Source of the DNA: Acidobacteriota bacterium
GTDB taxonomy: Bacteria; Acidobacteriota; Thermoanaerobaculia; Gp7-AA8
DNA length: 64,000 nt
Assembly (NCBI GenBank): GCA_021325515.1
Contig: JAJPHC010000051.1
Location: 27,998-91,997 of the forward strand
Direction: 5' to 3'
In this document: piece after piece, positions 9,594 through 45,901 of the stretch
Position numbering within the stretch: position 1 is the first letter of the stretch
How the letters are laid out: the number at the start of each line of letters is the position of its first letter
Notes under the pieces: generated by a model
Seen by the model: the letters and a program-made list of their open reading frames with translations, nothing else
Databases searched by the model: none
Told to the model about the DNA's origin: nothing
Translations under genes and position numbers: made by a program

Positions 9594-9664
9594 TAGGACA
9601 GGCGCCCTCGCCTGTCCAACCGAACCGACAGGCGAGGCCGACAGGCGAGGGCGCCTGTCGTACA
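9594..9664. repeat. palindromic repeat element, family 2 (GTAGGACAGGCGCCCTCGCCTGTCC ... GACAGGCGAGGGCGCCTGTCGTAC), intergenic copy
   Basis: The two ends are reverse complements of each other and each end is itself a small hairpin. Other copies at 39309-39430 and 43115-43174. Confidence 0.85.
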
Positions 9665-16493: not shown

Positions 16494-17158
16494 GGGGTGC
16501 CGAGGGCGAACTCGGCGCGGCAGCCTTCGGTGACCCAGATGCCTCGGCTGTCAAAGCCCCACGTGCGGTTCATGATGCACGAGTCTTTGCTCAACTGGCG
16601 CGATACCTGGACGCCGAAACGCGTGTCGGCCTTACACCGGTGCCGCACGTTGTTGATCGACTCACAGACGACCGTGCCGTGATAGTTCGACGCGCTCGTC
16701 ATCGGACGCGCGCCGGTGATGAACTCCGCGCGGCAGCCGTTGTCGACCCACACTCCGCGGCTGTCATAGCCCCACGACTTTCCTTCCACGCAACTGCTCT
16801 TGCTCAACTGCCTGCTGATCTGCACGCCATAGCGGGTATCGGCATCGCAGTGATGCCGTTTGCCGCCCGACTCACAAACGACTGCACTCGTCATCGGCGC
16901 GGAGGATGCGTTGTAAGGCGAGACGAGAAAATCAGCGCGGCACCCGTTGTCGACCCAGATCGTGTTGCCGCTGGAGCCCCACGTCTTTCCCTGCACGCAG
17001 GCGCTCTTGCTGAGCTGGCGCAACAGCGTCACCGTGCCTGTTCCTGTAAACCCGCAGCGTTCGATTCTGCCGCCCGACTCGCAGCGGACGCTAACGTCCT
17101 CCGCGAACAGCGGCGCAGCACACAGCGCGACCGCCACAACCAGACAGAGCTTTTTCAT
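16490..17158 (-). CDS. secreted DUF3011-repeat protein (three Cys-containing repeats)
   Basis: Start MKKLCLVVAVALCAAPLFA (rc ATG at 17156-17158, GGAGG 5 nt upstream). Three repeats of CESGG..RH.C.....V..RQLSK..C..GKSWG....GVWVDNGCRAEF. The N-terminal 537-aa extension in the ORF track is an artefact. Confidence 0.65.
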   Translation of the reverse strand: MKKLCLVVAVALCAAPLFAEDVSVRCESGGRIERCGFTGTGTVTLLRQLSKSACVQGKTWGSSGNTIWVDNGCRADFLVSPYNASSAPMTSAVVCESGGKRHHCDADTRYGVQISRQLSKSSCVEGKSWGYDSRGVWVDNGCRAEFITGARPMTSASNYHGTVVCESINNVRHRCKADTRFGVQVSRQLSKDSCIMNRTWGFDSRGIWVTEGCRAEFALGTP

Positions 17159-17233
17159 TTGCAACCTCCGCCACACTGCGATGCTCAGAACTTGCCACAT
17201 CGCAGCGGGGGTCGAAGCTTTATCATCGCCACG

Positions 17234-28163: not shown

Positions 28164-29138
28164 ATGCACCATCGCAAACTCGGCCAGCTCGAAGTCTCCG
28201 CCATCGGTCTCGGCTGCATGGGGATGTCGGAGTTCTACGGGACTCACAACGATGCGCAGTCGCTCGACACCATTCATCGCGCGCTCGATCTCGGCGTGAA
28301 CTTTCTCGACACGGCAGACATGTACGGGCCGTTCACGAACGAGAAGCTGGTGGGCCGCGCGATCAAAGGGCGCCGCGACTCCGTGATCCTTGCGACGAAG
28401 TTCGGCAACGAGCGGAGGGCGGACGGATCGTGGGTCGGCATCAACGGCCGGCCGGAGTACGTCCGCGCCGCGTGCGATGCCTCGCTGCTGCGGCTCGGCG
28501 TCGATCACATCGATCTCTACTATCAACATCGCGTCGATCCGAAGACGCCGATCGAAGAAACGGCCGGCGCGATGTCCGAGCTCGTTCGCGCGGGCAAGGT
28601 GCGATTCCTCGGTCTCTCCGAGGCGGCACCGAAGACGATCCGCCGCGCGCATGCGATTCATCCCATCACTGCGCTGCAGACTGAATATTCACTCTGGAGC
28701 CGCGAGCCGGAGGATGAGATTCTTCCGACGGTGCGCGAGCTCGGCATCGGGTTCGTCGCCTACAGTCCGATCGGCCGCGGATTTCTCTCCGGCCGCATCA
28801 AGAGCGTCGACGATCTCGAGCCGGATGACTATCGCCGCAACAACCCGCGATTCCAGGGAGAGAACTTCCAGAAGAATCTCGATCTCGTGAAGAAGATCGA
28901 ACAACTCGCGAAGAAGCGCGGCGTCACGCCCGCACAACTCGCGATCGCGTGGGTGCTGTCGCGCGGCGAAGACATCGTCCCGATTCCCGGCAGCCGCCGC
29001 ATCCCGCATCTCGAGGAGAACATCGCGGCGGTGAACATCACATTGACGCGCGAAGAGCTGAGGCAGATCGACGACGCGGCGCCCGCCGGCGCGGCGGTGG
29101 GAGATCGCTACCCCGACATGTCGCGCGTGAATCTCTAA
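28164..29138 (+). CDS. aldo/keto reductase family oxidoreductase
   Basis: 324 aa. [22 protein letters not shown] and KVRFLGLSE are canonical AKR motifs. Confidence 0.85.
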
Positions 29139-31831
29139 CGCGCAATCGGCTCTTCGAACGCGATCGGCGACGGCCGGTGCGTCTGCGCACTTTCTGCGAA
29201 GGCCTGCCGCATCTTCTCGTATTGCGGCAGCCAGAGATCACCGGCGCGCTTCGCCTGCTCCATGTGCGCCAGCGCCTCGGGGTACTGCTGTTCTGCGTAT
29301 AGCAATCGCGCACGGATGATCTCCGTGCGCGGCGCCTTCCGCAGCGCATCGGCCTGATCGAGCAGACGCTTTGCCTCCTGCAGCCTTCCGGCGCGAATCA
29401 TCGGGTAGGCAGCCCCGGCATAAACATCGGGGCCGAGATCGGGAACGTGAATCCTCCGGTCGATCGCGAGCGCCGCTTCCGCATTGTTCAGCGCTGCATC
29501 GAGCTCTCCGCGCCGCGCCCGCGCCTGCGCGAGATCGGAAAGGATCAGCTCCTCGATCGTCGTACCCTGATACGACCGAGCCTGGGCAAGCGCCTGCTCA
29601 AGCAGTGCGATCGCGCGCACTTCGTCGTTTCGTGCGTAGGCCCAGATCCCCTGCATCAGGATCGCCTGCGTCTCGGTGCCCTTGTCACCCACTTCGTGTG
29701 CAAGCTGTGCAGCCTGATTCGACATCTCCTCGGCGCGCGCCAGCTCTCCCTCGGCAGCATAGATCTGCGCCAGGTTTCCCATCACGATGCCGCTCGTCTC
29801 GCGATACCCGAGCTGCTTTCCGAGCTGCAGCGATTCTTCGAACCACTTCCTCGCGGCCTTGTTGTCATTGCGCCGCATCGCATTCGTCCCGAGGTTGTTG
29901 AGAGCTGCAATCTTGATATAGGGAACGTTCCGCTCCCGCGCGAGCCGCAAGGCCTTCAGTTCGGCAGCGTCGGCTTCGTCCAGGCGGTTCATCGACCGGA
30001 GAAAGACTCCGCGTGCGTTCAGCGCATAGACTTCGATCTCCACTCTTCCGAGCTGCTGCGCGAGCTTCAACGCTTCCTGCGTCGCGCTGTCTGCCACAGC
30101 GACATCGCCCCGAAGCTGGCGCGCGAATCCGTGATTGATCAGCGCCGACACCAGCACGCTCTTGTCGCCCCGCCGGCGGGCCTCGCGGATGACTTCTTCC
30201 ATCGCCGCATCCGCCTCCGCGGCTCGCCCTTGTCTGGCGTAGAGCTCAGCCAGCGCCTGCTTCGCATCCAGGAATTCCGGATCGCGATCAGCCGCAACCG
30301 CGAAGTACTTCTCCGCAAACTTGCCGCCGCGAGTGATCTCGACCTCGCGCCCGATGTCGAACGCCAGCGCAGCAAACGCGTCGCTCGTCCCGCGTCCAAC
30401 GCGCCGGACGAAATGGCGTGGATCGGCGCGCTTCGCGAGCTGATCGGCCATCTTGTTCGCCGCTTCGGTGAGAATCGTGGAACCGGCTTCCTGCGGCCGC
30501 TCCGTGTGACGCGCGTCGGAGATTGTGTAAGTGATGACGTATCGATCGTCGCGAAATGACACCGAGGAATCGACGATGGCGTCCGCGCCAACCGCTTCCA
30601 GCAGCCGCTTGCGATCGTCCGCGGTCTTCGGTCCGAACTTCGTCACCGCTTCCGGCGCTACGACATCGAGACTGGGCACCCGGTGGAGCGAGCGAATGAC
30701 GTGATCCATGAGACCGAGCTCGATCCATTTCATCCCCCGATCGCCGGTCGCGTTGCGGAAAGGAAGAATGATGATGCGGGGATTCGCTTTCCAGCCGATC
30801 AACTGCGAGCGCTCGCGAATGCGTTCCGCGAGAAAGATGCCGGCGACGGCGAACAGCGCGAGCGCGGCCGCCGATGCGATCCAGCGCAGTACCCTCCAGC
30901 GCCGCGCCGGCCGCTCCGCGATGCGGGCAAGAACATCGCCCACTTCACCGACCGAGGGGCGTTCCGACGGCGCGAGCGATGTCATTCGGCTAACCAGACG
31001 CTGCACCTCGCCGTCGCCGAGGTCCAGCGGCACCACTTGTGCGGCTCTCACCTTCTGCAGCAGCTCGGCGACCGATTCCACCTCGCCATAGGCCGGCGCG
31101 CCGCCGGACAGCATCTCCTGCAGCATCACGCCGAGGGAGTAGACGTCGCTCGCCGGCGTGAGCGGCAGGCCGCGAGCCTGCTCCGGCGACATGTAGTGCA
31201 GCGTTCCGACGAGGCTTCCAACGGACGTCTTGCTGTCGTCCGGCGCGGTCGATTCGACGCCGATGATCAGCGTCTTCTCCAGATCGATCGCCGCTGCCTC
31301 CACCATCGCGGGATCGGCGTATTCCGCCTCCACTGCGCGCGCCAGTCCGAAGTCCAGCACCTTCACATCGCCGGAGGAGGTCAGCATCACGTTCTCCGGC
31401 TTGAGGTCGCGATGAATGATGCCGCGGCCGTGCGCGACCGCCAGCACGCGCGCGATCTGCAGCGCGATCTCGACCGCCTCCTGCTTCGAAAGCCCGCTCT
31501 CGATCCGCTCGCGCAGCGTTGGTCCATCGATCAGCTCGAGGACCAGCCAGTCGCCGTCGACCAGCTCGAGGACGTCCCAGATGCGGCAGATGTTCGGGTG
31601 ATCGAGCTTCGACAGCACGCGCGCTTCGCGAAGAAACCGCGTGCGGAGCTGAGGATTCAGCCGGCGCTCGGTCGTAATCGACTTCAACGCGACCGCGCGC
31701 TCGAGCTTTTCGTCCCAACCGCGGTAGACCTCTCCCATCCCGCCCGCGCCGAGGAGAGCATCGACGCGGATGCGGCCGACGTAGGAGCCGGCGGGCAGAG
31801 GCATGGAAATAAGGTAACAGACGGCAGGCAC
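29135..31831 (-). CDS. Ser/Thr protein kinase with TM segment and large C-terminal TPR-repeat domain
   Basis: [24 protein letters not shown] and SPEQ kinase subdomains, then a hydrophobic segment and many TPR-like helical repeats (AxxxxxxAxxLxP.. periodicity). Start could be an internal Met. Confidence 0.75.
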
Positions 31832-31908: not shown

Positions 31909-33831
31909 GTGACACCCCCTGCGACACTCACCCTGGTGACAACCGAACCGCGTCCGCCGACGCTGACGATCCTTCTGCTGCTCTCGGCAGCACTGCTCGT
32001 CGCCTTCTTCAGCGGCTACGAGCTGCTGGATCGCGCCGTATTCGTCAACATGTTGACCGGTGAGGCTCGCGAGCTGCTGCACGGACTCAGCGGCATCACA
32101 GGCTCCGTCCTTCTCACGATCTTCATCGGCTGGTATCTCGTCGGCCATCCGGTCCACGCGCCGCACCGCAGCGACGGGATCACCTTCTTCGACACACACC
32201 ATCGCCGCATCGAGCAGCTCCGCTGGCTGGTGCAGATGCGCTGGATCGCCGCCGGCTTCAGCCTCGCGCTGATCGTCATCGCAGTACCGCTGATGCGCGT
32301 GCTCTCCGCCGATCACCTTCCCGCGCTGCTCTCCTGGCTCGGCGTGATGGTGGGCGGCAATCTCTACTTCGGCACCGCGATCCATCGCGACCGGAACTTC
32401 GATCGCCAGATCATCGTGCAGATGACGCTCGATACGATCGTCGTCACCGGGCTCCTCAACGCGTCGGGCGGCATCGACAACCCGCTGCTCATCGCCTATC
32501 TCTTCGGCGTCTTCACCGCCGCGGTTCTCCTGCCGAAGAGAACGGCGCTGACCATGACGGCGATGACGGCCGCGGCGCTCATCGCTCTCGTCATGGGCGA
32601 GCTCGTCGGCATCCTCCCCCACGCGAACGTGCGGCTGATGCCGTCGTCCGCGCACAACCCACTCTTCGTCGTCGCGCGGCTCGCGTCGATCCTCGCCGTC
32701 ATGTTCCTCACCTCGTACTTCACGACGATGGTGATGGACCGGCTGCGCGAGAGCGAGTCCGAACTGCGCAGCAACGCGCACACGGCGACGTTCGAGCGGC
32801 GCAGACTCGAGGCCGTGATCGAAGCCGCCGGCTTCGGCATTCTCGTCGTCGGCTCCGACCGCCGCATCGCATGGATCAATCACCGCCTCGGCTCCTGGAT
32901 GTCGTGGGACGAATCGATGATCGGCGGCGAGTGCCCGCACGATCATGAGCGCGACCACTTCTGCTTCGCCTGCACGGCAGCGGAGACGCTGGCCAGCGGC
33001 CGCGCGCAGGAGCGCGAGGTCACGACCGGCATCGTCGGCTCGCAGCGTCACTTTCGCTATGCGACGTTCCCGGTGCGCAGCTCGACGATCGATGTCGCGC
33101 AGGCCGTGCACGTGATCGAGGAGATCACGTCGCGTAAGGAGCTCGAAGCGCAGGCTCTCCACACGAGCGGCCTCGCCGTCCTCGGCCAGCTCGCTGCCGG
33201 GGTCGCGCACGAGATCGGCAATCCGCTGTCATCGCTGCATGCGCGCGTGCAGTTGATGCGCAGGCATCCCGATCCCGGCGCAATCGACGAGAGCCTCGAC
33301 GTGCTCGAGAAGCAGATCGACCGGATGGGACGCATCGTACGCGGCGTATCGCACCTCTCGCGCAATCGATTCGACAGCCGTGGACTCGTCGATGTCGATG
33401 CCGTGGTGCGGGAGGCCGTGGCGCTGGTGAAGATCGATCGCCGTGCGGCCCGCGTCGCGATTCATGACGAGCTGCAGACGCTCCCGCCCGTGCGTGGAAT
33501 CCGCGATGAGCTGCTGCAGGTCGTCCTGAATCTGCTCTTCAACGCGGTGGAAGCGATGCCCGGCGGCGGGACCATTCACGCCACGACGTTCGCGAACAAC
33601 GGGAGCATCTGCATCGGCGTCAAGGACAGCGGACCGGGCATCGATGCGGGCGTGCGCGAGCGGCTGTTCGAGCCGTTCTTCACCACCAAGCACAACGGCA
33701 CCGGCCTCGGTCTCTCCATCTGCCGGAGCCTCGTGCAGGCGAATGGCGGTTCGATCGAAGTCGAGAGCGAGCCGGGACGCGGCGCGCAGTTCACGATCGT
33801 GCTGCCCGCGATGAAGGAGGCCGTCGCATGA
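31909..33831 (+). CDS. membrane sensor histidine kinase (multi-TM N-terminus, HisKA, HATPase)
   Basis: H-box AHEIGNPLSSL; N-box LLFNAVEAM; G boxes DSGPGID and GTGLGLSI; about 8 N-terminal TM helices. Start codon uncertain (track start is GTG). Confidence 0.75.
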   Translation: MTPPATLTLVTTEPRPPTLTILLLLSAALLVAFFSGYELLDRAVFVNMLTGEARELLHGLSGITGSVLLTIFIGWYLVGHPVHAPHRSDGITFFDTHHRRIEQLRWLVQMRWIAAGFSLALIVIAVPLMRVLSADHLPALLSWLGVMVGGNLYFGTAIHRDRNFDRQIIVQMTLDTIVVTGLLNASGGIDNPLLIAYLFGVFTAAVLLPKRTALTMTAMTAAALIALVMGELVGILPHANVRLMPSSAHNPLFVVARLASILAVMFLTSYFTTMVMDRLRESESELRSNAHTATFERRRLEAVIEAAGFGILVVGSDRRIAWINHRLGSWMSWDESMIGGECPHDHERDHFCFACTAAETLASGRAQEREVTTGIVGSQRHFRYATFPVRSSTIDVAQAVHVIEEITSRKELEAQALHTSGLAVLGQLAAGVAHEIGNPLSSLHARVQLMRRHPDPGAIDESLDVLEKQIDRMGRIVRGVSHLSRNRFDSRGLVDVDAVVREAVALVKIDRRAARVAIHDELQTLPPVRGIRDELLQVVLNLLFNAVEAMPGGGTIHATTFANNGSICIGVKDSGPGIDAGVRERLFEPFFTTKHNGTGLGLSICRSLVQANGGSIEVESEPGRGAQFTIVLPAMKEAVA

Positions 33832-35171
33832 CCGGACGGATTCTGCTCGTCGACGACGAAGACGTTTTCCGCGAAGACATCGCGTCATTGCTGCGGCACG
33901 AAGGCTACGTGTGCGAGGCCGCGGCTTCCGGCGCCGAAGCGCTGCGCATTGCACAGAGCGAGGCACCCGACATCATCCTGTCCGACATGGTGATGCCCGG
34001 GATCTCCGGCGCGGAGCTCGTGCGCACACTCGCAGCGGCATGTCCGGAGACGCCGATCGTGGTGATCACCGCGCATGCGACAGTGGAGACGACCGTCGAG
34101 GCCTTTCGCGCCGGTGCGACCGACTATCTCCTCAAGCCGCTAGTCATCGACGATCTCATTCGCAAGGTCGAGCGCTGCCTCGAGCATCGCCGGCTGCAGG
34201 CCGAGCTGCGCTTTCTGCGCAAGCAGGTCTCGCTCGCCGGAGGAGGCACGACGATCGTCGGCACGAGCCGGCCGATCCAGGCCGTGCGCGACCTGATCGC
34301 GCGCGTCGGCCCGTCGAACAGCAGCGTGTTGATCACCGGAGAGAGCGGCACCGGGAAGGAGCTCGTCGCGCGGGCGCTGCATGCTGCCGGCAGCAACGAG
34401 CGCGCGCCGTTCATCGCGGTGAACTGCGCCGCATTGCCGCGAGATCTCATCGAGAGCGAGCTGTTCGGGCACATGCGCGGCGCATTCACCGGAGCGATGC
34501 GCGACAAGCGCGGACTGTTCGAGCTTGCCAACGGCGGCACGCTCTTTCTCGATGAGCTCTGCGAGCTGCCGGTCGAGCTGCAGCCCAAGCTGCTGCGCGC
34601 GATCGAACAGCAGGAGATCCTGCCCGTCGGCGGGACGCGCGTCATCCGGACGAACGTGCGCATCATCGCGGCGACGAATCGCGTCCTGCGCGATGAGATC
34701 GCAACACGGCGCTTCCGCGAGGATCTCTATTTCCGGATTGCGGTCGTGGAGATCGCACTGCCGCCGCTGCGCGACCGACGCGAAGACATCCCGATGCTCG
34801 CCGACTTCCTCATCGCGCGCTTGAATGACCGCCTGAAGCGCCGCGTGAACGGCGTCGCCCACTCCGCGCTCCGCGTGCTGATGAGTGCACCGTGGCGCGG
34901 CAACGTGCGCGAACTGGAGAACGTGCTCGAGCGCGCGATGCTGCTGACGAACAACGAGATCATCGGCATCGAGGATCTCCCCGCCGAGCTGGCCGGCACA
35001 CTCGCGACGAGCGACCCCTCCGACGATCTGCGCAACGCCGTCCGAGCCTACGAACGGGAACACATCCGCCACGTGCTCGCAACGACGAACGGCAATCGCG
35101 AGGAAGCATCCCGAAGGCTCGGCATCGACGCCTCAACCCTCTACCGAAGAATGCGCGACCTCGCCCTTTAA
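33828..35171 (+). CDS. sigma-54-dependent response regulator (NtrC family: REC, AAA+ sigma54-activator, Fis-type HTH)
   Basis: LLVDDE receiver; GESGTGKE Walker A; GAFTGA sigma54-contact motif; ELFGH; C-terminal HTH ..NGNREEASRRLGI..TLYRRM. The stop TAA overlaps the first T of repeat copy C. Confidence 0.9.
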   Translation: MTGRILLVDDEDVFREDIASLLRHEGYVCEAAASGAEALRIAQSEAPDIILSDMVMPGISGAELVRTLAAACPETPIVVITAHATVETTVEAFRAGATDYLLKPLVIDDLIRKVERCLEHRRLQAELRFLRKQVSLAGGGTTIVGTSRPIQAVRDLIARVGPSNSSVLITGESGTGKELVARALHAAGSNERAPFIAVNCAALPRDLIESELFGHMRGAFTGAMRDKRGLFELANGGTLFLDELCELPVELQPKLLRAIEQQEILPVGGTRVIRTNVRIIAATNRVLRDEIATRRFREDLYFRIAVVEIALPPLRDRREDIPMLADFLIARLNDRLKRRVNGVAHSALRVLMSAPWRGNVRELENVLERAMLLTNNEIIGIEDLPAELAGTLATSDPSDDLRNAVRAYEREHIRHVLATTNGNREEASRRLGIDASTLYRRMRDLAL

Positions 35172-35366: not shown

Positions 35367-35383
35367 GCGGCCCCGGCATTGCG
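35367..35383 (+). promoter_or_regulatory. weak sigma-54-type -24/-12 promoter candidate (cGGccccggcatTGCg)
   Basis: GG at 35369-70 and GC at 35381-82 have the canonical 12-nt GG..GC spacing and the -12 reads TTGC. The -24 half is a poor match to TGGCAC. Confidence 0.25.
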
Positions 35384-35989: not shown

Positions 35990-36454
35990 ATGGAAGCCTT
36001 CGATCGCTCGATGAATCGCCGCACACTGCTCAACTGGTTTCTCGGCACGTCGTTCGGCGCGCTGATCGCGTCGGTGATCTACCCCGTGCTGCGGTACATG
36101 ACTCCACCGAAGATCGCCGAGGCGAGCACGAATCAGGTCGAAGCCGGCGAAGTGAATGATCCCGCGCTGCTCGACAAGGGCTACAAGATCATCCGCTTCG
36201 GCGCGGAGCCGGTGATTCTCGTCAAGGCCGCGGAAAACGATTTCCGCGCTTTCTCCGCGACGTGCACGCATCTCGACTGCATCGTCGGCTTCCAGAAGGA
36301 CCAGACGCGCATCTACTGCAACTGCCACGGCGGCTGCTACGACCTCACAGGCCGCAATGTCTCCGGTCCGCCGCCGCGGCCTCTCACTCCCTACAAAGTC
36401 AATGTCGTCTCGAAGGGCTCGGGTCCGGGCCTGATCGTCGTATCGAAGGCGTAA
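35990..36454 (+). CDS. Rieske [2Fe-2S] iron-sulfur protein (bc/b6f-type)
   Basis: GAGG 8 nt before the ATG; twin-arginine-like [13 protein letters not shown]; cluster boxes CTHLDC...CNCHGGCY. The track start at 35975 is a GTG overlapping the upstream stop. Confidence 0.85.
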
Positions 36455-36456: not shown

Positions 36457-39231
36457 ATGAGCGCAATCTTTGAGTGGCTCGATGACCGGCTCGGCGTCTC
36501 CGTCCTGCGCGAGGTCGCATCACACAAGACCGTACCCTCGCATCGCTACACCATCCTCTACTACCTCGGCGGCATGACGCTCTTCTTCTTCCTCGTCCAG
36601 GTCTGCACCGGCGTTCTGCTGATGCTCTATTACAGACCGTCGGCCGAAGAAGCCTTCGAGTCGGTGGAGTTCATCATGACCACAGTGCCGTTCGGATGGC
36701 TCATCCGCAGCGTGCACTCCTGGTCTGCCAATCTCATGGTGTTCTTCGCCTTCCTCCATCTCGTGAGCGTCTTCTTCATGAAGGCGTACCGGCCGCCGCG
36801 CGAAGTCACCTGGATCAGCGGCGTCATCGTGCTCTTCCTCGTCATGGGCTTCGGCTTCTCCGGCTATCTGCTGCCGTGGAATCAGCTCGCGTTCTTCGCG
36901 ACGAAAGTCGGCACGGACATCGCCGGCGTCGTCCCGCTCGTCGGCCCATGGATGGTGCGCTTCCTCCGCGGTGGTGATCGGGTGAGCGGCGCGACTCTTT
37001 CGCGCTTCTACGGCTGGCACGTCGCGATCCTTCCCGCGATCACGACCGTCATCCTCGGATTGCATCTCGCGATGGTGCAGCTCAAAGGGATGAGCGTGCC
37101 GAAGTCGATCGAGGACGATGCGAATTCGCGCAAGCCGATGAAGTTCTTCCCCCACTTCGCACTGCGCGATCTCACCGGATGGATCATCGCCCTCGGCTTC
37201 GTCGCCGCACTCGCCGCCCTCTTCCCCTGGGAGCTCGGCGACAAGGCTGATCTCTTCGCGCCCGCCTACGAGAACATCCGCCCCGAGTGGTACTTCGTCT
37301 TCATGTTCCAGACGCTGAAGCTCGTGCCCGGCGGCTCCATCGCCGGCATCGAGTACGAGGCGATTCCGATCATGCTGTTCAGCCTCGCCGGCGCTCTGCT
37401 GATGGCTGTCCCCTTCCTCGACCGCAGACTCAAGCGCGATGGAAAGAGCCCGCTCTTCACCACGATCGGCGTGCTCGCCATCCTCTTCATCGTCGGCATG
37501 ACGTGCTGGGGCTACGGCAACATCGTGCCGCTGCTGGTCATGGCGCTCGCCGCATCGCTGCTCGTCCTGCTCGGATGGATCACGAGGCCTCCGCGCGCGA
37601 TGATGATGATCGCGCTGCTGTTCCTCGCCGCACACGCCTGGGGCGCGACGCCGAAGACGTCGTGCACCACCTGCCACAACAGCGAACTATTCGATGCCGC
37701 CGGCAAAGCGAAGGTGACTTCGTTCCTCACGAAGGACGTGCATGCGCAGATCGGCCTCTCCTGTCACGATTGTCACGGCGGCAATCCCGATCCTGCACTG
37801 AGCACCGATCCGGCTGCCGCCATGGATCCCAATTACAAGAAGAACCCGTTCCGCGGAATGCCGGCGCGCAAGGACATTCCCGACTTCTGCGGCCGCTGCC
37901 ACTCCAGCGCGGCCTTCATGAAGCAGTACAACCCGGCCGCGCGCGTCGATCAGGTCAGTGAGTACTGGACGAGCCGCCACGGCCAGCTTCTCAAGCAGGG
38001 CGATACGAATGTCGCGGTCTGCATCGACTGCCATTCCGTGCACGACATCCGCCGCAGGATCTCACCCGACTCGCCCGTCTACAAGACGAAGGTTGCGGAG
38101 ACCTGCAGCCGCTGCCACTCCGACGCGAACAGGATGGCGAAGTACGGCATCCCCACCGATCAGTACGCGCGCTGGCGCGTGAGTGTGCACGCCAATGCGG
38201 TGCTCAACAAGGGCGACATCGCAGCGCCTAGCTGCAACGACTGTCACGGCAATCATGGAGCGACACCTCCCGGCGTCGAGTCGATCAGCTTCGTCTGCGG
38301 ACGCTGTCACGCGCGCGAAGCGGAACTGTTCCGCAAGAGCCCGAAGTACGACGCCTGGCAGAAGCACAACGAGATGATGAACGGGATGGCGTGCTCCACG
38401 TGTCATGCCGACGGCAAGCGCGCCAGCGTCACCGTGACGCACTTCAGCGAATGCCTCACCTGCCACGAGAATCACGGCGTCGTCCGTCCGACGATCGCCC
38501 TGCTCGGCAATCTGCCGGAAACACCCTGCGCGTTCTGTCATGAAGGCGTCGGCCCGCTCGCCGCACGCATCGCGGAGATGCCGGAAAAGGCCGAGCACTT
38601 CAAACAAGTGCGCGACAGCTTCCTCAAGGTTGCCGATGCCCAGCATCTGAAAGGCAATGACCGTTTCGACTGGCTGGTTGACCAGGCGCTGCACCTCCCC
38701 TTCCATCGCGTCGGCGACGCGAAGCAGAACGACAAACTGCGTCCCGAGTTCCTACGGCTCTTCGACAAGTTCCGCATCGGCAAGACGCACTACGTCTACA
38801 AGGATGTGAAAGGGAACGACGTCTCGGTACCGGTCCGCAGTTGTGGCGACTGTCATGAAGAAAAGGATTCCGCCGGCCTGGCGAATGCGCGCGCGTATCT
38901 CGATGCCACGCGCAGCGTGACCAGCATGGTCGGACGCGCCGATCGCATCCTGCTCTCCGCGCATCGCGGCGGTGTCGAAGTGCGCAAGGTACGCGCCGAG
39001 CTCGATGGAGCCATCGACTCCCAGATCGAGCTCGAGACGCTGGTGCACACGTTCAACGCGCCTGAGGTGCAGGCCAAACAGAAAGAAGGACTGCAGCACG
39101 CCGAGGCGGCGCTGGTCGCCGGACAATCGGCGCTCGACGAGTTGCTGTATCGCCGCAAAGGATTGTTGATCGCGCTCGGAATCATCCTTCTGGTTCTCGT
39201 CGCGCTGATCACGAAGATCAGGACGTTGTAG
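36457..39231 (+). CDS. cytochrome b (b6 plus subunit-IV-like, 8+ TM) fused to a C-terminal multiheme (11 x CxxCH) cytochrome c domain
   Basis: The N-terminal about 420 aa has the cytochrome b His ligands and the PEWY motif ([14 protein letters not shown]). The C-terminal about 500 aa carries CTTCH, CHDCH, CGRCH, CIDCH, CSRCH, CNDCH, CGRCH, CSTCH, CLTCH, CAFCH and CGDCH, plus a final TM anchor. The track start at 36262 is artefact; the ATG at 36457 follows the Rieske stop. Confidence 0.85.
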
Positions 39232-40848
39232 ATGAGCGAAGCCGAGCTCGAGCTGCGCGTTCAGCGCCTCGAGACCGCGCTGGCGGAGCTGACGCGCCGC
39301 GTAGACGGTGTAGGACAGGCGCCCTCGCCTGTCCACGCGCCCTCGCCTGTCCACGCGCCCTCGCCTGTCCAGGCGCCCTCGCTCCACTTCGACACGGATG
39401 CCGCGGGACAGGCGGAGGCGCCTGTCCTACAGGACTCCCCTGACTGGCTCACCCTGGCCGGCTTCTCCGTCCTCATCTTCGGCGGTGCGTATCTTCTCCG
39501 CGCCTTCACGGAGTCGGGCGTGCTGCCGCCGGTCGGCGGTGTCATCGCCGGTGCGGTGTACGCGCTCATCTGGATCTGGATCGCCGATCGCAAGCATGCG
39601 GTCTACCTCGCCGCGACCGCGGCCGCAATCGCGTTCCCGCTCGTGTGGGAGACGACGGCGCGCTTCCACTACGTGACGCCGGCGGCCGGCGGCTTCCTCG
39701 CGGCGATCATCGGCGTGATCCTCATCTTCGTCGCCTGGCACAACAGCAAGGAAGCGATCGCGTGGATTGCCAGCATCGGCTCGATCGCCGTCACGATCGC
39801 GATCGTCAAGCCGGACGCGATGCTGCCGCTCATGATCGCCGGCAGCGTCGTCGGCGCGGCAACGCTGCACGTCGCCATCCTGATGCGATGGAAGTTCGTC
39901 GCGCTCCCCGCCGCGGTCATGACCAACGCGCTTGCGTCGATGACCATCGGCATCCCGATTCTCCGCGGCGGCTTCGAGCGCCCCGGCGAAACGATCGCGG
40001 CGCTCATCGGCTTCGCCGCAGTCTGGCTCGCGACGATCTGCTATCGCCGCATTCATTACAACGAGCACCTCTCCTTCTTCGACATCATCGAGAGTGCGCT
40101 ACTGCTCTTCATCGGCGTCGGCGGCGCGGCCTTCGTCGCCGGACTGACGCATCGCTATGGCGTCATCGTCGCAACGATCTATGTGATCGCCGCGGTCGCC
40201 GCGTATCTCGAGGCGTCGAGAAAAGACGGCATGCGCACGTGGCTCACCTCGGTCGCGCTCTATCTGATCTGGCTGGCGATGCTGATCGCGCTCGAGCTGC
40301 GCGCGGCCGCCGTCATCGCTGCGATTCTCGGCGTCGCTTCGGCGGAATTCGGACGCCGCCTGCAATGGCCGGCACTCGCCGCGCAGAGCGTCCTCTGGAT
40401 CGCCGGCGCCTTCCTGATCGGCGGCTTCTCCGGCCCCGTCGCCATTCTGATCTCCGCCTGCATCCTGATCGCGTGCCTGCGTGTGCACCTGCCGCTCGCT
40501 CACACTCTGCTGCTCGCGCTCTTCGCCGTTTCGCTCTTCCTGCTTGCCGGACATGATCGCGGCGCACTCGTCCGCACGCTTCTGCTCGCCGCCTTCGCAG
40601 CAATCCTCGGATTCGGCTCGAAATACACGCATGCGGCGATTCCGGTCGCTCGCCTCCTGCTCGTCGCAGGTGGATTGAAATTACTCGCAGAGGATGTCCG
40701 CACCGAGCGCGCGGCCATCCTCGTTATCTCCTTTGCTGCCTATGGGTTCGCCATGCTCGCCGTCGCGAGATGTGCGCGCCGTCACACCACTTCGCCACTT
40801 GAGTCACAAAGAACCCCCCTCACTGACACATTAAGTAGCAATCGCTAA
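39232..40848 (+). CDS. DUF2339-like polytopic membrane protein with N-terminal coiled-coil
   Basis: MSEAELELRVQRLETALAELTRR coiled coil, then about 14 TM helices. Contains an in-frame copy of palindromic element family 2 in the linker. Confidence 0.55.
   Translation: MSEAELELRVQRLETALAELTRRVDGVGQAPSPVHAPSPVHAPSPVQAPSLHFDTDAAGQAEAPVLQDSPDWLTLAGFSVLIFGGAYLLRAFTESGVLPPVGGVIAGAVYALIWIWIADRKHAVYLAATAAAIAFPLVWETTARFHYVTPAAGGFLAAIIGVILIFVAWHNSKEAIAWIASIGSIAVTIAIVKPDAMLPLMIAGSVVGAATLHVAILMRWKFVALPAAVMTNALASMTIGIPILRGGFERPGETIAALIGFAAVWLATICYRRIHYNEHLSFFDIIESALLLFIGVGGAAFVAGLTHRYGVIVATIYVIAAVAAYLEASRKDGMRTWLTSVALYLIWLAMLIALELRAAAVIAAILGVASAEFGRRLQWPALAAQSVLWIAGAFLIGGFSGPVAILISACILIACLRVHLPLAHTLLLALFAVSLFLLAGHDRGALVRTLLLAAFAAILGFGSKYTHAAIPVARLLLVAGGLKLLAEDVRTERAAILVISFAAYGFAMLAVARCARRHTTSPLESQRTPLTDTLSSNR
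39309..39430. repeat. palindromic repeat element family 2, expanded copy (internal 18-bp unit ACGCGCCCTCGCCTGTCC x3) inside a CDS
   Basis: It translates in frame as VGQAPSPVHAPSPVHAPSPVQAPSLHFDTDAAGQAEAPVLQ. The ends are GTAGGACAGGCG... and ...GCCTGTCCTAC. Confidence 0.8.
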
Positions 40849-40898: not shown

Positions 40899-43049
40899 AT
40901 GACACGACTTCACCGCGGCCTGATCCTCATCGCGCTTATGGCCGTCATCTCGCTGCCGATGTTCGCGGCGACGCGCGGACGCGCCGCCGGTTCGCCTGCG
41001 AATCCGGCCACGCCAACGGCAGCGGCATTCCCGCCGACTGCGAAAGAGGCATACCTCACCGATGACACGCTCGCGTATATCCGTCCCGGCCTCAAGGTGA
41101 AGCTCAACTCCGTCGCGGTCGGCACGGACGGCAAGGTCAACGTCGATCTCTCGATCACCGACGACTTCGATCAGCCGATCGATCGCCTCGGGAAAACGAC
41201 GCCGGGCGCAGTCTCCATCAGCTACATCCTCGCCTGGTACAGCCCCACGACCCGCCAGTACACCGCGTACACCACGCGTGTACAAACGACTCCCGCCACG
41301 AGTCCGCATCCCGGCGTCAGCGCAACTCAGGCAGGAACCGATTCCGGCGGCACCACCACCGATCTCGAAACCGGCCATGTGAAGTACCTCTTCAAGACGG
41401 TGCTTCCCACCGGCTTCGACGGCACCAGGACGCACACACTCGGCATCTATGCCTCGCGCAACATGACCGATACGATCGGCAAGATCTATTACGCGAACGT
41501 CGAGTACGACTTCCGTCCCGATGGCAACAAGGTCACGGACGTATGGGACAAGGTCAATCTCGCCACGAGCTGCAACAACTGCCACGATCCCCTTTCCGCA
41601 CATGGCGGTGCGCGCCGCGATCCGAAACTGTGCGCGCTCTGCCACTCTCCGCAGACCATCGATCCCGACACCGGCAACACGGTCGATTTCAAGGTGATGA
41701 TCCACAAGATCCATCAGGGCGCGACTCTGCCGAGCGTGAAGGCCGGAACGCCGTATCAGATCATCGGCTTCGGCCAGAACGTCCTGGACTTCTCCAAGGT
41801 CGCGCTTCCGCCGGGACAGGACACTCGCAATTGCGCCTTCTGCCATGTCGGCAGCGATCCGACGAAGAAGCCCGCACAGAACGACGTCTGGCTGACCAAG
41901 CCGTCGCGCGATGCATGCGGTTCCTGCCACGACGACATCGACTGGGCCACAGGCAAGAATCACGTCGGCGGCCTTCAGAAGGATGACAGCGCGTGCGCCA
42001 GTTGCCACGTTCCGGACAGCGGGAAGGAATTCGACGCGTCCATCAAGGGCGGCCACGTTCTTCCGGTTGCCTCCAAGCAGCTCAAGGGCATCACCGCCAC
42101 GATCACCAAGGTCGTGAATGCGGCACCCGGCAAGAAACCGACGGTGACCATCGCCGTCAAGAACGGCGACGGCACGCCGGTCGACGGCAGCAAGCTGACG
42201 ACCTTCGCGCCGATCATGGCCGGCCCAACCACGAGCTACACCAAGTACTTCCGCGAGAGCGGCATCGCATCCGCCACGAACACGAACGTCGCGACCTACG
42301 ACGCGGCCACCGGCCTCACCTCGTTCACGTTCGCCAACGCGATCCCCGCCGATCAGACCGGCACATGGGCCTTCACTGCAGACATCTATCGCAACGTCAC
42401 ACTGAAGCAGAACAATGACAAGGCCGATCTGACGCAGCGCGAAGCGGCGTTCAACAACATCGTCTACATCCCGATCACCGGCACGACGGCGACGCCGCGC
42501 CGCACCTCGGTCATCCTGTCCCAGTGCAACAGCTGCCACAATGCGCTCGCACTGCACGGCGGCCAGCGCCAGAACACGCAGGAATGCGCCATCTGCCACA
42601 ACCCCACGAACAATGACGTTGCACAGCGCCCGGCGAGCGAAGGGCAGCCGGAGTCGATCTCCTTCCAGCGTCTCATCCATCGCATCCACAAGGGCGGAGA
42701 GTTGACGCAGGACTTCACCGTCTACGGCAATAACAAGTCCCGCCACAACTACAACGACGTGGAGTATCCGGGAGACATCAACCATTGCGCGAAGTGCCAC
42801 ACGTCGACCTCGTACCAGCTGCCGCTGGCGACGGGCATCGACTCCGTGACGACACTCCGCGATTACTATTCGCCGCAAGGCCCCGCGACCGCTGCGTGCC
42901 TTGGCTGCCACGACAATCGTGACGCCGCGGCGCACGCGTTCCTCAATACGGCAACGTTCCCCGGCCAGCCCACTACCCCGGCCGAAGCGTGCGCAACGTG
43001 CCACGGTGCTGGTAAGGACTGGGCGGTCGACAAGGTGCACGCCCAGTAA
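40899..43049 (+). CDS. MtrC/OmcA-like outer-surface decaheme c-type cytochrome (10 x CxxCH, beta-rich inserts)
   Basis: GGAG before the ATG; signal peptide; CNNCH, CALCH, CAFCH, CGSCH, CASCH, CNSCH, CAICH, CAKCH, CLGCH, CATCH in 716 aa. Thr/Gly-rich beta-type segments lie between the haem clusters. The antisense ORF 40845-43229 is artefact. Confidence 0.7.
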   Translation: MTRLHRGLILIALMAVISLPMFAATRGRAAGSPANPATPTAAAFPPTAKEAYLTDDTLAYIRPGLKVKLNSVAVGTDGKVNVDLSITDDFDQPIDRLGKTTPGAVSISYILAWYSPTTRQYTAYTTRVQTTPATSPHPGVSATQAGTDSGGTTTDLETGHVKYLFKTVLPTGFDGTRTHTLGIYASRNMTDTIGKIYYANVEYDFRPDGNKVTDVWDKVNLATSCNNCHDPLSAHGGARRDPKLCALCHSPQTIDPDTGNTVDFKVMIHKIHQGATLPSVKAGTPYQIIGFGQNVLDFSKVALPPGQDTRNCAFCHVGSDPTKKPAQNDVWLTKPSRDACGSCHDDIDWATGKNHVGGLQKDDSACASCHVPDSGKEFDASIKGGHVLPVASKQLKGITATITKVVNAAPGKKPTVTIAVKNGDGTPVDGSKLTTFAPIMAGPTTSYTKYFRESGIASATNTNVATYDAATGLTSFTFANAIPADQTGTWAFTADIYRNVTLKQNNDKADLTQREAAFNNIVYIPITGTTATPRRTSVILSQCNSCHNALALHGGQRQNTQECAICHNPTNNDVAQRPASEGQPESISFQRLIHRIHKGGELTQDFTVYGNNKSRHNYNDVEYPGDINHCAKCHTSTSYQLPLATGIDSVTTLRDYYSPQGPATAACLGCHDNRDAAAHAFLNTATFPGQPTTPAEACATCHGAGKDWAVDKVHAQ

Positions 43050-43060: not shown

Positions 43061-44026
43061 ATGCGAATCGAATTTGCTTGGGTCCGCGGGCTCGAGGGCC
43101 CGCGGGCTCCCGGTGTAGGACAGGCGCCCTCGCCTGTCCAATCCGCCAGTGGCAGGCGGGGGCGCCTGTCGTACACATTGCTCTTCCTGATCGTTCTGAG
43201 TGTTCCGTTGCTTGCCCAGGAGGCGGCAACGGTTCCCTCCTGCGGCGATTGTCACGACGAACAGGCCAAGGCCTTCATCACCAATCCCCACGGTCACGGC
43301 AAAGCTGTCAATGGTGTGATTCCCAATGCCGTCTGCGAAAAGTGCCATGGCGACGGCAAGGGCCACATCGAAGGCGGCGGCGACAAGAGTCTCATCTACA
43401 AACCGGCCGGAATGGCAGGCTCGAACAAGACCTGCCTTACCTGCCACGACCTCAATAACGATCGCGTGTCGCGTCATGCCGGCACTCATGCGAACTCTCC
43501 GGCGGTGAACTGCCTCACCTGTCATTCGGTTCACTCCGCGAAAGCATCACCGCTGCTCGTCAAGAAGCAGCTCGAGCTCTGTGCGAACTGCCACGCGACT
43601 CAGGTCGCCTCCTTCCGCGACAAGCCCTACGCGCATCGCCTCGGCCGCGGCGGCATGGAGTGCAGTTCCTGTCACGAGCCGCACGGACGTCCGCAGCGCG
43701 AGATGCTGCGCAAGACCACGGCGGGCGAGCTCCCCTGCGTTGGCTGCCACGTGCAGCAGCGCGGGCCATTCGTCTTCCAGCACGGCTCCGCGGCGATCGG
43801 CGACTGCATGACGTGCCATGAGCCGCACGGCTCTGCGAATCCGAAGCGCCTCATTCGCGCGACGGTCACGCAGCTCTGCATCGAGTGCCATTCGCCCATC
43901 GAAGGCAACACACTCGGCTCACAGCCGCCGGCGTTCCACAACCTCTCTCTGTCGCGCTACCAGAGCTGCACGACCTGCCATACCGCGGTCCACGGCTCCA
44001 ATCGCGACCCGCAGTTGTTCAAATGA
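43061..44026 (+). CDS. MtrA/DmsE-like periplasmic decaheme c-type cytochrome (10 x CxxCH in 321 aa)
   Basis: GGAGG 6 nt before the ATG. CGDCH, CEKCH, CLTCH, CLTCH, CANCH, CSSCH, CVGCH, CMTCH, CIECH, CTTCH. The size and haem density match MtrA. The signal-peptide n-region is interrupted by a family-2 palindromic element. Confidence 0.75.
   Translation: MRIEFAWVRGLEGPRAPGVGQAPSPVQSASGRRGRLSYTLLFLIVLSVPLLAQEAATVPSCGDCHDEQAKAFITNPHGHGKAVNGVIPNAVCEKCHGDGKGHIEGGGDKSLIYKPAGMAGSNKTCLTCHDLNNDRVSRHAGTHANSPAVNCLTCHSVHSAKASPLLVKKQLELCANCHATQVASFRDKPYAHRLGRGGMECSSCHEPHGRPQREMLRKTTAGELPCVGCHVQQRGPFVFQHGSAAIGDCMTCHEPHGSANPKRLIRATVTQLCIECHSPIEGNTLGSQPPAFHNLSLSRYQSCTTCHTAVHGSNRDPQLFK
43115..43174. repeat. 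palindromic repeat element family 2, short copy, in-frame inside the MtrA-like signal peptide
   Basis: GTAGGACAGGCGCCCTCGCCTGTCCAATCCGCCAGTGGCAGGCGGGGGCGCCTGTCGTAC, translated VGQAPSPVQSASGRRGRLSYT immediately before the hydrophobic core LLFLIVLSVPLLA. Confidence 0.8.
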
Positions 44027-44038: not shown

Positions 44039-45901
44039 ATGACCATCAGAAGAATCTTCGCGCTCCTCCTCTTCACCGCTGCAACGGCCGGTCAGGCACA
44101 AGTGGCGCCCTGGGACTTCGAAGCCGGCTATCGCTGGCTCAATCTCAAAGGCAGCCCCGGGATGTATCGCACGCAGGTCAACGAGCGCGAGGGATTTCTC
44201 ATCCGTAGTTTCAACCTCGCGACCACCGGACCCAACATGGACCGGCTCGTCGTTCACGTCAGCGATTTCGGCACGAGTCCCGCCGGCTCGCTCCGCCTCG
44301 AGGCCTGCAAGCAGGATCTCTATCGCTTCACTCTCGGCTACCGCTCCGCGGATCAGTACTCCATCTTCTTCGGCCAGCATTACTACAACCGTGCACGGCG
44401 CACCCTCGACGCGGATCTCGAGCTCTTCCCCGAGTCGCGCATCGCGCCCTACGTCGGCTACTCCTTCAACCGCTTTGCAGGTCCCGGCGAAACCACGTAT
44501 CACTTCGGCCAGGATGAATTTCTGCTGCAGCAGAAGCAGAAGGATATCGATCAGGAAGTGCGCGTCGGTGCGAGCTTCAAGTACGACTGGGTGTACGGCA
44601 GCTTCACACAAGGGTGGCGGCGTGCACACAGCACGATCGACTCCTCGCTCTTCCCCGGTGCCGGCAACGGCAACAACAACGATCCCATCCTCGGCCAGCC
44701 GGTCAACGCGACCTCGATCACGCGCCACGACACGGAAAAGACGAAGACTCCCTTCACCAATCTCTACGTCACGCTGCAACCGCTCTCGCGCGGCCGCGTG
44801 ATCGCGAATTACGTTCATCTCTCCGCAGACTCGGATGGCAATGAGAGCGAGGCGGCCTACGGCAGCTTCGCCTCGTTCGCCATCAGCCGCTTCTTCACAG
44901 GCGCGACGGAAACCGCGACATCGCACGCGAAAAACACCACGTGGCGCAGCGGCGTTCGCGGTGAGTACACCATCGCCGAGGGTGTGGATGCCTTCGCCGG
45001 ATATCAGAAGGACCATCGCGATCTCAACGGCAGCGCGCTGATCGATACGCTGTATCTGCAGAGCATCACGTTCGGCGGCGTCGACCAGCGCGACTTCCGC
45101 GACATCCTCGCCTCCGAGAACTCGATTGAGCGCGAGGAGACGACGACCAGTGCCGGCGTTTCCGTCCGCAATCTCGGCAACCTCGCAGTGCGCGCCGAAT
45201 TCCGCCAGGCGAAAGTCGAAGCGGATGTCGCACCCGATCTCTCCGAGATCGTCGTCCCCGGAAATCAGGAAGGCTCGTTCGAGCGGCGCATCAACACACT
45301 CGACACCAACGCGCAGTACGCAACGCACGGCTGGCTCCTCGGCGCTGCCTGGCGCAGCGACAGTGCGAATCAGCCGATCTTCCGCACTGATTACAAGGAC
45401 CGCGACCGCTATCGCCTGCGCGCGCAATGGTCGCAGTTCAAGTGGGCGAAGATCACCTCCGTCTACGAGCGCACGACGATGTCGAATGACACCTCGTTCG
45501 AAAGCCGCGTCCGCAACTACACGACCGACGCCGCGATCATGCCCACGGAAGGCATTACGCTGCACGCCTCGGTGTCATCCTTCAAGAGCGACAGTACGAT
45601 CTCGTATCGCCGCCCGCAGACCTTCGTCGTCACGACCTCCGTCCACAGCGAGAACGGTCACACGCGCGAAGGCGGCATCGGCTTCGCGCTGCCGCACTCC
45701 ATCTACTTCGATGCGAACATCGCACGGCTGCACAATGACGGCACGTACCCGTTCAAGCTCAACCGCTACAACGGCCGGATGACGTTCCCCTTGAAGTCGC
45801 ATTACGGCCTCGCCGTCGAATACAACAAGGACCGCTACGTGGAGTCGAGCTCACTCGATTACGACGCCACGCGCTGGGGCCTCTTCCTTCGGATTCAGTA
45901 G
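44039..45901 (+). CDS. large outer-membrane beta-barrel protein, MtrB/PioB-like porin partner of the decaheme pair
   Basis: GGAGTGAG before the ATG; signal peptide MTIRRIFALLLFTAATAGQAQ; 620 aa of alternating Y/F/W-rich amphipathic strands; positioned directly after the MtrA-like gene, as in mtrCAB. Confidence 0.55.
   Translation: MTIRRIFALLLFTAATAGQAQVAPWDFEAGYRWLNLKGSPGMYRTQVNEREGFLIRSFNLATTGPNMDRLVVHVSDFGTSPAGSLRLEACKQDLYRFTLGYRSADQYSIFFGQHYYNRARRTLDADLELFPESRIAPYVGYSFNRFAGPGETTYHFGQDEFLLQQKQKDIDQEVRVGASFKYDWVYGSFTQGWRRAHSTIDSSLFPGAGNGNNNDPILGQPVNATSITRHDTEKTKTPFTNLYVTLQPLSRGRVIANYVHLSADSDGNESEAAYGSFASFAISRFFTGATETATSHAKNTTWRSGVRGEYTIAEGVDAFAGYQKDHRDLNGSALIDTLYLQSITFGGVDQRDFRDILASENSIEREETTTSAGVSVRNLGNLAVRAEFRQAKVEADVAPDLSEIVVPGNQEGSFERRINTLDTNAQYATHGWLLGAAWRSDSANQPIFRTDYKDRDRYRLRAQWSQFKWAKITSVYERTTMSNDTSFESRVRNYTTDAAIMPTEGITLHASVSSFKSDSTISYRRPQTFVVTTSVHSENGHTREGGIGFALPHSIYFDANIARLHNDGTYPFKLNRYNGRMTFPLKSHYGLAVEYNKDRYVESSSLDYDATRWGLFLRIQ

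Follow-up and report, generated by a model that had tools for sequence, protein, structure and literature searches.

The stretch analysed here (the window) is 64,000 nucleotides (nt) of contig JAJPHC010000051.1 of an Acidobacteriota bacterium, and the gene in question is the open reading frame (ORF) 36457..39231 on its + strand, which encodes a cytochrome b and an 11-haem c-type cytochrome in one translation product and is followed by genes of the MtrC and MtrA families. With moderate confidence, the product is regarded as part of a Rieske/cytochrome b menaquinol oxidase, an analogue of complex III, in which an anchored 11-haem cytochrome replaces cytochrome c1 or f and which would here likely feed an Mtr conduit. 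The fusion is one form of a large unnamed complex III family in Acidobacteriota, in which the two parts are usually encoded by two separate genes.

The ORF runs for 924 codons uninterrupted by a stop, and its ATG is located 2 nt 3' of the stop codon of the Rieske gene. By Pfam, Cytochrome_B was assigned to amino acids (aa) 26-208 (E 8.5e-52), Cytochrom_B_C to aa 272-353 (E 3e-5) and several multihaem-c families to aa 401-700. The segment of aa 1-215 was aligned end to end with chloroplast/cyanobacterial cytochrome b6 (6rqf_I, E 6e-58), and the subunit IV part was detectable at a weaker level (E about 5e-6). H87 and H101 of helix B and H188 and H203 of helix D were aligned with the haem-b ligands of b6. 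In an alignment of 75 fused homologues, these four His and P276-E277-W278 of the quinol oxidation (Qo) site motif PEWY were invariant, and the Tyr of the motif was conserved in at least 90%. The cytochrome b hallmarks read by the earlier note from the letters of the stretch, namely the His ligands of helices B and D and a PEWY-type Qo motif, are borne out by these results, and none of the ligating His whose absence it had named as a ground for doubt is missing. With the four His, the PEWY motif and a Rieske partner all found, the cytochrome b belongs to the Rieske/cytochrome b (bc1/b6f) superfamily. Membership of b6f proper was rejected: the spacing of H188 and H203 is 14 residues and of the b6 type (the His ligands of helix D are spaced by 14 residues in b6f and by 13 in bc1), but the cytochrome b part is unsplit, with an eighth helix before the hinge in the manner of bc1, and the Cys for haem cn is absent (LYYLGG vs FYCLGG in b6). 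Of the wording "b6 plus subunit IV" in the earlier note, the similarity was found, and the unsplit eight-helix form lacking that Cys departs from it. Cytochrome b genes in the relatives encode 361-389 aa.

Exactly 11 CxxCH motifs were counted in the fused protein (at aa 403, 436, 478, 522, 550, 593, 614, 646, 666, 691 and 796), for which a chance expectation of ~0.001 was estimated from the Cys and His frequencies, and C50 and C350 are the only Cys beyond these motifs. Nine of the motifs are invariant in the 75 fused homologues and the remaining two are kept in at least 90%. The C-terminal transmembrane (TM) helix at aa ~899-920 is followed by KIRTL. As read from the sequence, the loops obey the positive-inside rule for 9 + 1 TM segments, with TRPPR inside, and the last helix leads back to the cytoplasm; the haem domain is therefore placed in the periplasm by the eight cytochrome b helices, the hinge and the positive-inside loops. 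The eleven motifs over about 500 aa, the C-terminal anchor and the P-side location of the haem domain, all proposed in the earlier note, agree with this count and topology. AlphaFold2 with the homologue alignment gave a mean pLDDT of 79.6, with about 88-91 across the haem domain; a single-sequence model of the whole fused protein (pLDDT 41) was discarded. The top 50 matches by Foldseek against the Protein Data Bank (PDB) were cytochrome b chains only and are uninformative on the haem domain, for which nothing significant was returned by phmmer against the PDB (best E 0.03). No record was obtained by an exact-sequence look-up of the window protein. No significant NapC/NirT (Pfam Cytochrom_NNT) or Ni_hydr_CYTB-type architecture was found in the fused protein, the NrfH match being at E 0.0039 only and far under the cut-off, and tblastn against plasmids returned ordinary cytochrome b only, with no hint of a mobile origin.

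The hinge (aa 379-396) was aligned with the N-terminal signal peptides of seven stand-alone haem proteins and is, on this alignment, read as the former signal peptide of the haem protein; the TM hinge described in the earlier note is present and hydrophobic, with the nuance that it appears to be such a relic. The hinges of the fused proteins have diverged almost wholly and yet keep a basic stretch, with a hydrophobic run in 69/75. The motif AxA just ahead of the first haem was found in 43/75 fused hinges and in 19/30 genuine signal peptides, compared with 15% of background windows. Since AxA is retained in the hinges at a frequency like that of genuine signal peptides, signal peptidase probably still cuts the precursor there, which would give a 9-TM cytochrome b and a C-terminally anchored 11-haem subunit. 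In FbcH of Bradyrhizobium japonicum, a cytochrome b-c1 polyprotein, an internal signal sequence is cleaved and the c subunit is anchored by a C-terminal helix. As in FbcH, an internal signal peptide with a signal-peptidase motif lies here between the cytochrome b and c domains, with cleavage as a prediction; unlike in FbcH, where the partner is the monohaem c1, the partner here carries 11 haems.

The fusion is not an assembly artefact, because the fused frame is shared by independent assemblies and by diverged homologues. It was found in a 95%-identical relative, both in two NCBI assemblies and in one independent assembly from the Sequence Read Archive (SRA), and more than 75 full-length fused homologues were recovered by protein search at 48-95% identity, so that the search for other cytochrome b-multihaem fusions suggested by the earlier note was productive and its proviso of a sequencing frameshift or missed stop can be set aside. 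The fused frame is present in 93 of the 120 best-scoring protein clusters listed, the ranking of which favours full-length fused matches.

Stand-alone proteins of ~550 aa that match the haem half alone were also recovered by protein search, at 62-75% identity. In a Thermoanaerobaculia metagenome-assembled genome (MAG; locus L004), a 153-aa Rieske gene and a 384-aa cytochrome b gene are followed by the haem gene with a 4-bp overlap. A profile was made from the haem half of the window protein aligned with seven stand-alone forms, in which all 11 CxxCH are conserved, and by scanning with this profile an 11-haem relative was found in at least 490 species-representative genomes. Loci were counted in the best 80 of these species-level genomes by tblastn and ORF tracing, and the labels of the 80 are almost all Thermoanaerobaculia or Acidobacteriota MAGs. 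The cytochrome b gene is located immediately 5' of the 11-haem gene in 80/80 loci, and a Rieske gene 5' of cytochrome b in 77/80, the remaining three being at contig ends. The two genes are fused at 11/80 loci and split at 69/80. The single polypeptide claimed by the earlier note thus stands as one ORF, but it is not the usual state among relatives and, given the AxA of the hinge, the mature proteins may be separate. At the split loci the haem gene is 1 base out of the cytochrome b frame in nearly all, with ATGA stop/start overlaps at the sampled junctions, and the junction in the window (GCG ATG ATG ATG ATC) is in the cytochrome b frame. In a neighbour-joining tree of the haem domain, which is rough and without support values, the fused forms stand in at least four places amid split ones, and from this scatter the fused or split state has probably changed several times. 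The fusion is a labile and secondary variant of gene structure and not the essential feature. From an ancestor with overlapping ATGA, a frame change in the short cytochrome b tail would have led to loss of the stop and to the fused gene, and the signal peptide of the haem protein would have become the ninth TM segment, by which the haem domain is brought to the periplasm. A few loci with the Rieske/cytochrome b/multihaem-c module were also obtained from MAGs labelled Chloroflexia, Limisphaerales, Spirochaetales, Methylomirabilota, Chondromyces, Verrucomicrobiae and Polyangiaceae (L047, L049, L051, L061, L062, L066, L080), to be ascribed either to horizontal transfer or to mis-binning.

The family extends well beyond the 11-haem form. 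An exhaustive search with the haem domain gave 393 clusters (representatives at 50% identity) at E<=1e-30, a number that rises to 1540 at E<=1e-10; the majority are ~420 aa in length, carry 9 haems and share the helical stalk and the RRxGL...KIR anchor. A 9-haem member (P0144) follows Rieske and cytochrome b with a 4-bp overlap amid housekeeping genes, and 9-haem forms fused to cytochrome b make up 17/120 listed clusters, including one (P0266) from a low-GC organism. A protein of 760 aa (P0130) contains two tandem 9-haem modules and one C-terminal anchor, as an internal duplication of the family. The members are named in databases as "cytochrome c3 family protein", "multiheme c-type cytochrome" or "cytochrome b N-terminal domain-containing protein", and the named organisms are Thermoanaerobaculia, Thermoanaerobaculum sp., Acidobacteria and Candidatus Binatia. 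No literature description of the 9/11-haem family or of its fusion was found; a mention in earlier reviews of cytochrome bc evolution is possible.

In the window, one unbroken gene string on the + strand runs from the monohaem cytochrome c to the putative porin (Table 1), in which the starts abut or overlap from the 93-aa ORF through the 538-aa gene and 50 nt separate the latter from the MtrC gene. The Rieske protein was aligned over its full length with b6f PetC (2zt9_D, E 7.5e-14), and its box II carries Gly instead of the Ser of high-potential Rieske proteins (CNCHGG vs CPCHGS). Established mutational work has found that the Ser-to-Gly exchange at box II lowers the potential, and such a lower-potential Rieske protein would fit a menaquinol oxidiser. 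The monohaem cytochrome c gave c6/c551-like NCBIfam matches under the cut-off, and its orthologue in L001 was assigned to Pfam Cytochrome_CBB3. Beyond the NCBIfam assignment, the MtrC-like protein was matched by Pfam MtrC-MtrF_II-IV and by MtrF in the PDB (3pmq, E 1.4e-27); the MtrA/MtrC-like genes seen downstream by the earlier note are hence confirmed as members of these families. Homologues of the 620-aa putative porin (39-48% identity) are located after MtrA in relatives.

The association with Mtr genes was then followed across the relatives. Homologues of the MtrC-MtrA-porin trio lie no farther than 10 kb from the module in L001/L007, L004/L020, L013, L018, L025, L026, L028, L033 and L042, in varied orientations. 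At the 42 well-flanked loci (at least 7 kb on both sides, features counted within 10 kb), an MtrA-sized decahaem cytochrome was found near the module in 12/42 and a further cytochrome with at least 8 haems in 24/42 (57%). More distant loci have other partners (a 21-haem ORF or a c554-like pentahaem cytochrome) or none; in L064, L070, L074, L079 and L081, an ORF of ~990 aa with 21 CxxCH lies 3' of the 11-haem gene, sometimes with 18-/11-haem ORFs nearby. The island of L004 (1-21659, MAG La2_metabat2.187) carries a CbcL-like protein of 642 aa (cytochrome b561-type plus multihaem c), an NrfH-like cytochrome of 491 aa, ccm maturation genes, the MtrC-MtrA-porin trio and a molybdopterin oxidoreductase, which is accompanied by a small Rieske protein of its own; as CbcL-like and NrfH-like quinol dehydrogenases are present there, the module is maybe one of several entry points. 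The module is not dedicated to extracellular electron transfer but is a general Rieske/cytochrome b/multihaem-c complex. It looks like the general complex III of the lineage, often located in multihaem islands and recruited here to an Mtr conduit, and in this genome it plausibly feeds extracellular electron transfer, as its position and homology suggest. The proposal of the earlier note that the cytochrome b with its haem wire is an entry point to the conduit is plausible on the same grounds, and the replacement of CymA/NetBCD-type quinol dehydrogenases that it raised is a possibility.

The activity, the partner and the direction of flow were inferred from homology and synteny as follows. Menaquinol would be oxidised at the PEWY Qo site; one electron would be passed by the mobile head of the Rieske protein, exported by twin-arginine translocation (Tat), to the 11-haem chain, and the other by way of the b haems, first bL (His87/His188) and then bH (His101/His203), to the quinone reduction (Qi) site, as a proton-motive Q cycle. 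The C-terminal helix would act as the anchor of c1/f does, and the hinge would be either kept as a ninth helix or removed. From the haem chain, electrons would most likely enter the co-transcribed MtrA-porin-MtrC conduit and reach extracellular Fe(III)/Mn(IV) or humics, and they may also be transferred to the co-encoded soluble monohaem cytochrome c. Several points weigh against this reading. Rieske clusters usually lie above multihaem cytochromes with bis-His ligation in potential, and electron transfer from Rieske into the wire need therefore not be downhill. For the 11 haems, no more than 9-10 conserved His outside the motifs and 1-2 conserved Met were found. The 620-aa putative porin gave no Pfam, NCBIfam or PDB match, lenient thresholds included. 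MtrC and porin homologues are located near the module in only 6/42 well-flanked loci, and the distant members L083 and L087 are flanked by housekeeping genes. The conservation of AxA could in part stem from the shared ancestry of recently fused genes. A broader claim is put forward only tentatively: that the 9-/11-haem proteins form a class with a wire instead of c1, and that in some lineages a Q-cycle enzyme is plugged directly into MtrCAB and conserves energy at quinol oxidation, unlike the CymA-type route.

The strongest alternative, which is considered possible but clearly less probable than the favoured assignment, is a general-purpose complex III only, from which electrons would be delivered to soluble cytochrome c and then to oxidases or N-oxide reductases, with the adjacency of mtrCAB being incidental or merely co-regulated. 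The contrast between a cytochrome b/11-haem core at every locus counted and the scarcity of MtrC and porin beside it, the operons amid housekeeping genes in L083 and L087, the class I cytochrome c gene directly 5' of Rieske here and in close relatives, and the very large size of the family at E<=1e-30 all agree with it. It accounts less well for the unbroken + strand string in the window, for the adjoining of the MtrC-MtrA-porin trio to the module in several species with differing arrangements, and for the additional large multihaem cytochromes at more than half of the well-flanked loci, and a wire of 9-11 haems would seem to exceed what is needed for reaching a soluble cytochrome c.

An inward flow, in which electrons from Fe(II) or a cathode would pass through MtrCAB and the 11-haem wire to a reversed Rieske/cytochrome b complex for the reduction of menaquinone, with the monohaem cytochrome c as a downhill branch to an oxidase, is thought improbable. 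An uphill role has been given to Rieske/cytochrome b complexes in Fe(II) oxidisers (PMC8280799), MtrAB homologues run inward in PioAB systems (PMC8805035), and a class I cytochrome c is co-encoded here. Against such uptake, the parts of the window that were scanned revealed no genes for an oxidase or for carbon fixation. A surface decahaem cytochrome of the MtrC/OmcA family is typical of reducers, and the sole cultured relative, Thermoanaerobaculum, is presumably an anaerobic Fe(III)/Mn(IV) reducer. A decahaem cytochrome of that family is present here and is missing from PioAB-type uptake systems (PMC8805035), and Thermoanaerobaculum is a strict anaerobe (PMC8100337).

Still less likely is a catalytic haem domain, by which the 11-haem part would be a terminal reductase of the NrfA/octahaem type for a soluble substrate, wired to quinol oxidation. 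Direct wiring of this kind has a precedent as a proposal for an anammox HAO-linked complex, and the conserved distal ligands do not clearly add up to 11; but all eleven motifs are CxxCH, with no CxxCK or other special active-site motif, only ~175 of ~500 residues align, at 14% identity and with no sequence-level match, and what is shared is the packing core that multihaem cytochromes have in common. That a frameshift or assembly error merged two separate genes can practically be dismissed, for although the relatives are mostly split and a change of 1 nt near the ATGA overlap would be enough, the fused frame recurs in the assemblies and clusters given above and the hinges are strongly diverged yet signal-peptide-like.

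Rieske/cytochrome b proteins with multihaem partners and cytochrome b-c fusions are known already, and what is new is the 9-/11-haem variant. As in Cbc6/ExtMNOPQS of Geobacter sulfurreducens, Rieske and a b-type cytochrome are encoded together with multihaem cytochromes. We take the ext cluster of Geobacter to adjoin the outer-membrane conduit ExtHIJKL, in contrast to the conduit of the window, which is of the MtrCAB type. In Geobacter GSU2930-2937, a Rieske protein and a b6-like cytochrome b occur with 10-/12-haem cytochromes and have been proposed as an inner-membrane site of quinol oxidation for metal reduction (PMC2825233). The cytochrome b of the window scored 215.3 bits (E 8e-64) with the ExtP model NF040969, below the equivalog cut-off of 290, so that it was rejected as an ExtP equivalog and is related only; no meaningful match to ExtN/ExtO was obtained (E about 0.006-0.008). 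Unlike in Cbc6, the multihaem subunit of the window is of another family, C-terminally anchored and fused to an unsplit 8-TM cytochrome b. In the Kuenenia complexes Kustd1480-85, Kuste4569-74 and Kuste3096-97, a b6-like cytochrome b is combined with a hexa-/octahaem TM-anchored cytochrome instead of cytochrome f, long helices wrap the complex, and Kuste3097 has cytochrome b and a dihaem c in one polypeptide (PMC12954380). The window module resembles these anammox Rieske/cytochrome b complexes in a b6-like cytochrome b with a TM-anchored multihaem cytochrome in the place of cytochrome f, the likeness of the haem subunits being one by description, and it differs from them in having eleven haems, no haem-cn Cys and no encoded NAD(P) oxidoreductase or HAO-like subunit.

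Fusions of cytochrome b with a class I c domain (the PEWY/PDWY-cytochrome c clades, including Acidobacteria) and the cytochrome b-trihaem c7 fusion of Ignavibacterium album have been described (PMC4122944). As in these, a c-type domain stands at the C-terminus of a full cytochrome b with a Qo motif; unlike these, which carry 1-3 haems, the window protein carries 11 (the sister subfamily 9), has its own C-terminal anchor and retains a signal peptide as the joint. For early bc complexes, Rieske proteins with multihaem partners have been suggested (Dibrova 2013, as cited in PMC5317091). In its proposed role, the transfer of electrons from the menaquinol pool to periplasmic and outer-membrane multihaem cytochromes, the module is like CymA (NapC/NirT), NetBCD, ImcH and CbcL (PMC6295460, PMC8805035), from which it differs in an unrelated fold and mechanism; a Q cycle would allow a Rieske/cytochrome b enzyme to conserve energy. 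Membership of the CymA family was rejected, since Cytochrom_NNT was not detected. Rieske/cytochrome b enzymes are unmentioned in a survey of quinol oxidases for extracellular electron transfer (PMC6295460) and in one of mtrCAB passenger genes (PMC8805035), the latter also without mention of Acidobacteria, and cytochrome b and Rieske proteins are unmentioned in a peat preprint on Acidobacteriota conduits.

Table 1. Features of the fused gene and its neighbourhood, in positions of the window.
Feature	Position	Strand	Remarks
Sensor histidine kinase (PilS-like 6TM, PAS, HisKA, HATPase)	31909..33831	+	Pfam; operon link positional only
NtrC-type sigma-54-dependent response regulator	33828..35171	+	Pfam Response_reg + Sigma54_activat + HTH_8
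Perfect 45-nt inverted repeat, 26-nt loop	35168..35283	.	Repeat search; directly 3' of regulator gene, 5' of cytochrome operon
Small ORF, 93 aa	35398..35679	+	Stop overlaps cytochrome c start (ATGA); AAGGAG site before cytochrome c
Monohaem class I cytochrome c, 100 aa	35676..35978	+	Signal peptide, one CAGCH
Rieske [2Fe-2S] subunit	35990..36454	+	Pfam Rieske + TM_PetC; N-terminal NRR twin-arginine motif; boxes CTHLDC, CNCHGG
Fused gene: cytochrome b domain, aa 1-378	36457..37590	+	8 TM helices; His87/101/188/203; PEWY 276-279
Fused gene: hinge/ninth TM, aa 379-396	37591..37644	+	Apparent relic signal peptide with AHA motif; aligned with signal peptides of stand-alone homologues
Fused gene: periplasmic (by topology) 11-haem c-type domain, aa 397-898	37645..39150	+	
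Fused gene: C-terminal TM anchor and stop codon	39151..39231	+	Kept in fused and stand-alone forms
Polytopic membrane protein, 538 aa	39232..40848	+	Start abuts fused gene stop
MtrC/OmcA-family decahaem cytochrome, 716 aa, 10 CxxCH	40899..43049	+	TIGR03507, 486.9 bits vs cut-off 209.3
MtrA/DmsE-family decahaem cytochrome, 10 CxxCH	43061..44026	+	TIGR03508, 211.5 bits vs cut-off 192.2
Putative outer-membrane porin, 620 aa, signal peptide	44039..45901	+	Assigned by MtrB position only

Neither the 538-aa membrane protein nor the 93-aa ORF gave a significant match in Pfam, NCBIfam or the PDB, lenient thresholds included; the homologue of the former in L006 was matched weakly by DUF2339, homologues of it are located within 10 kb of the module in 19/42 well-flanked loci, and an 87-aa ORF occupies the position equivalent to the latter in L003. 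A histidine kinase/response regulator pair homologous to that of the window adjoins the split cluster in L009. The 45-nt inverted repeat may be a terminator or an activator-binding site. Scans for sigma-70 promoters and terminators performed no better than on shuffled sequences and a simple search for sigma-54 patterns was at chance level; a candidate -24/-12 element (GGCCCC-N5-TTGC, at about 35368-35383) was noted by eye only. A palindrome like the repetitive extragenic palindromic (REP) elements, GTGTAGGACAGGCGCCCTCGCCTG ... CAGGCGGxGGCGCCTGTCxTACAC, occurs as three hairpin copies at 9593-9663, 39306-39431 and 43111-43176, respectively, with 6 arm matches vs 0.43 expected. The second copy, which contains three 18-nt tandem units, is located inside the 5' end of the 538-aa ORF and encodes the "APSPVH" repeats, and the third lies 3' of mtrC, with the true start of mtrA probably 3' of this hairpin; with REP copies within their 5' ends, the annotated N-termini of the 538-aa ORF and of mtrA are therefore doubtful. 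Two large genes for Ser/Thr protein kinases with TPR repeats are located at 16640-19513 (+) and 29135-31831 (-), the latter ending just 5' of the histidine kinase gene that precedes the cytochrome operon.

Quinol oxidation is the least understood step of extracellular electron transfer and the one by which the energy yield is set. The recognised quinol enzymes of this process (CymA, NetBCD, ImcH, CbcL and CbcBA) are not of the Rieske/cytochrome b type, the only hint of such an enzyme being the uncharacterised Cbc6 of Geobacter. If a Q-cycle enzyme is indeed wired to MtrCAB, the protons per electron would be roughly doubled at the quinol step, and the route would probably be confined to acceptors of higher potential. 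If true, this would also help to explain the respiration of minerals or humics by Acidobacteriota, a phylum abundant in soil, sediment and sludge. The family provides a natural experiment in gene fusion and fission, in which a signal peptide repeatedly becomes an internal TM segment, and, given its generic current labels, it is a defined target for annotation.

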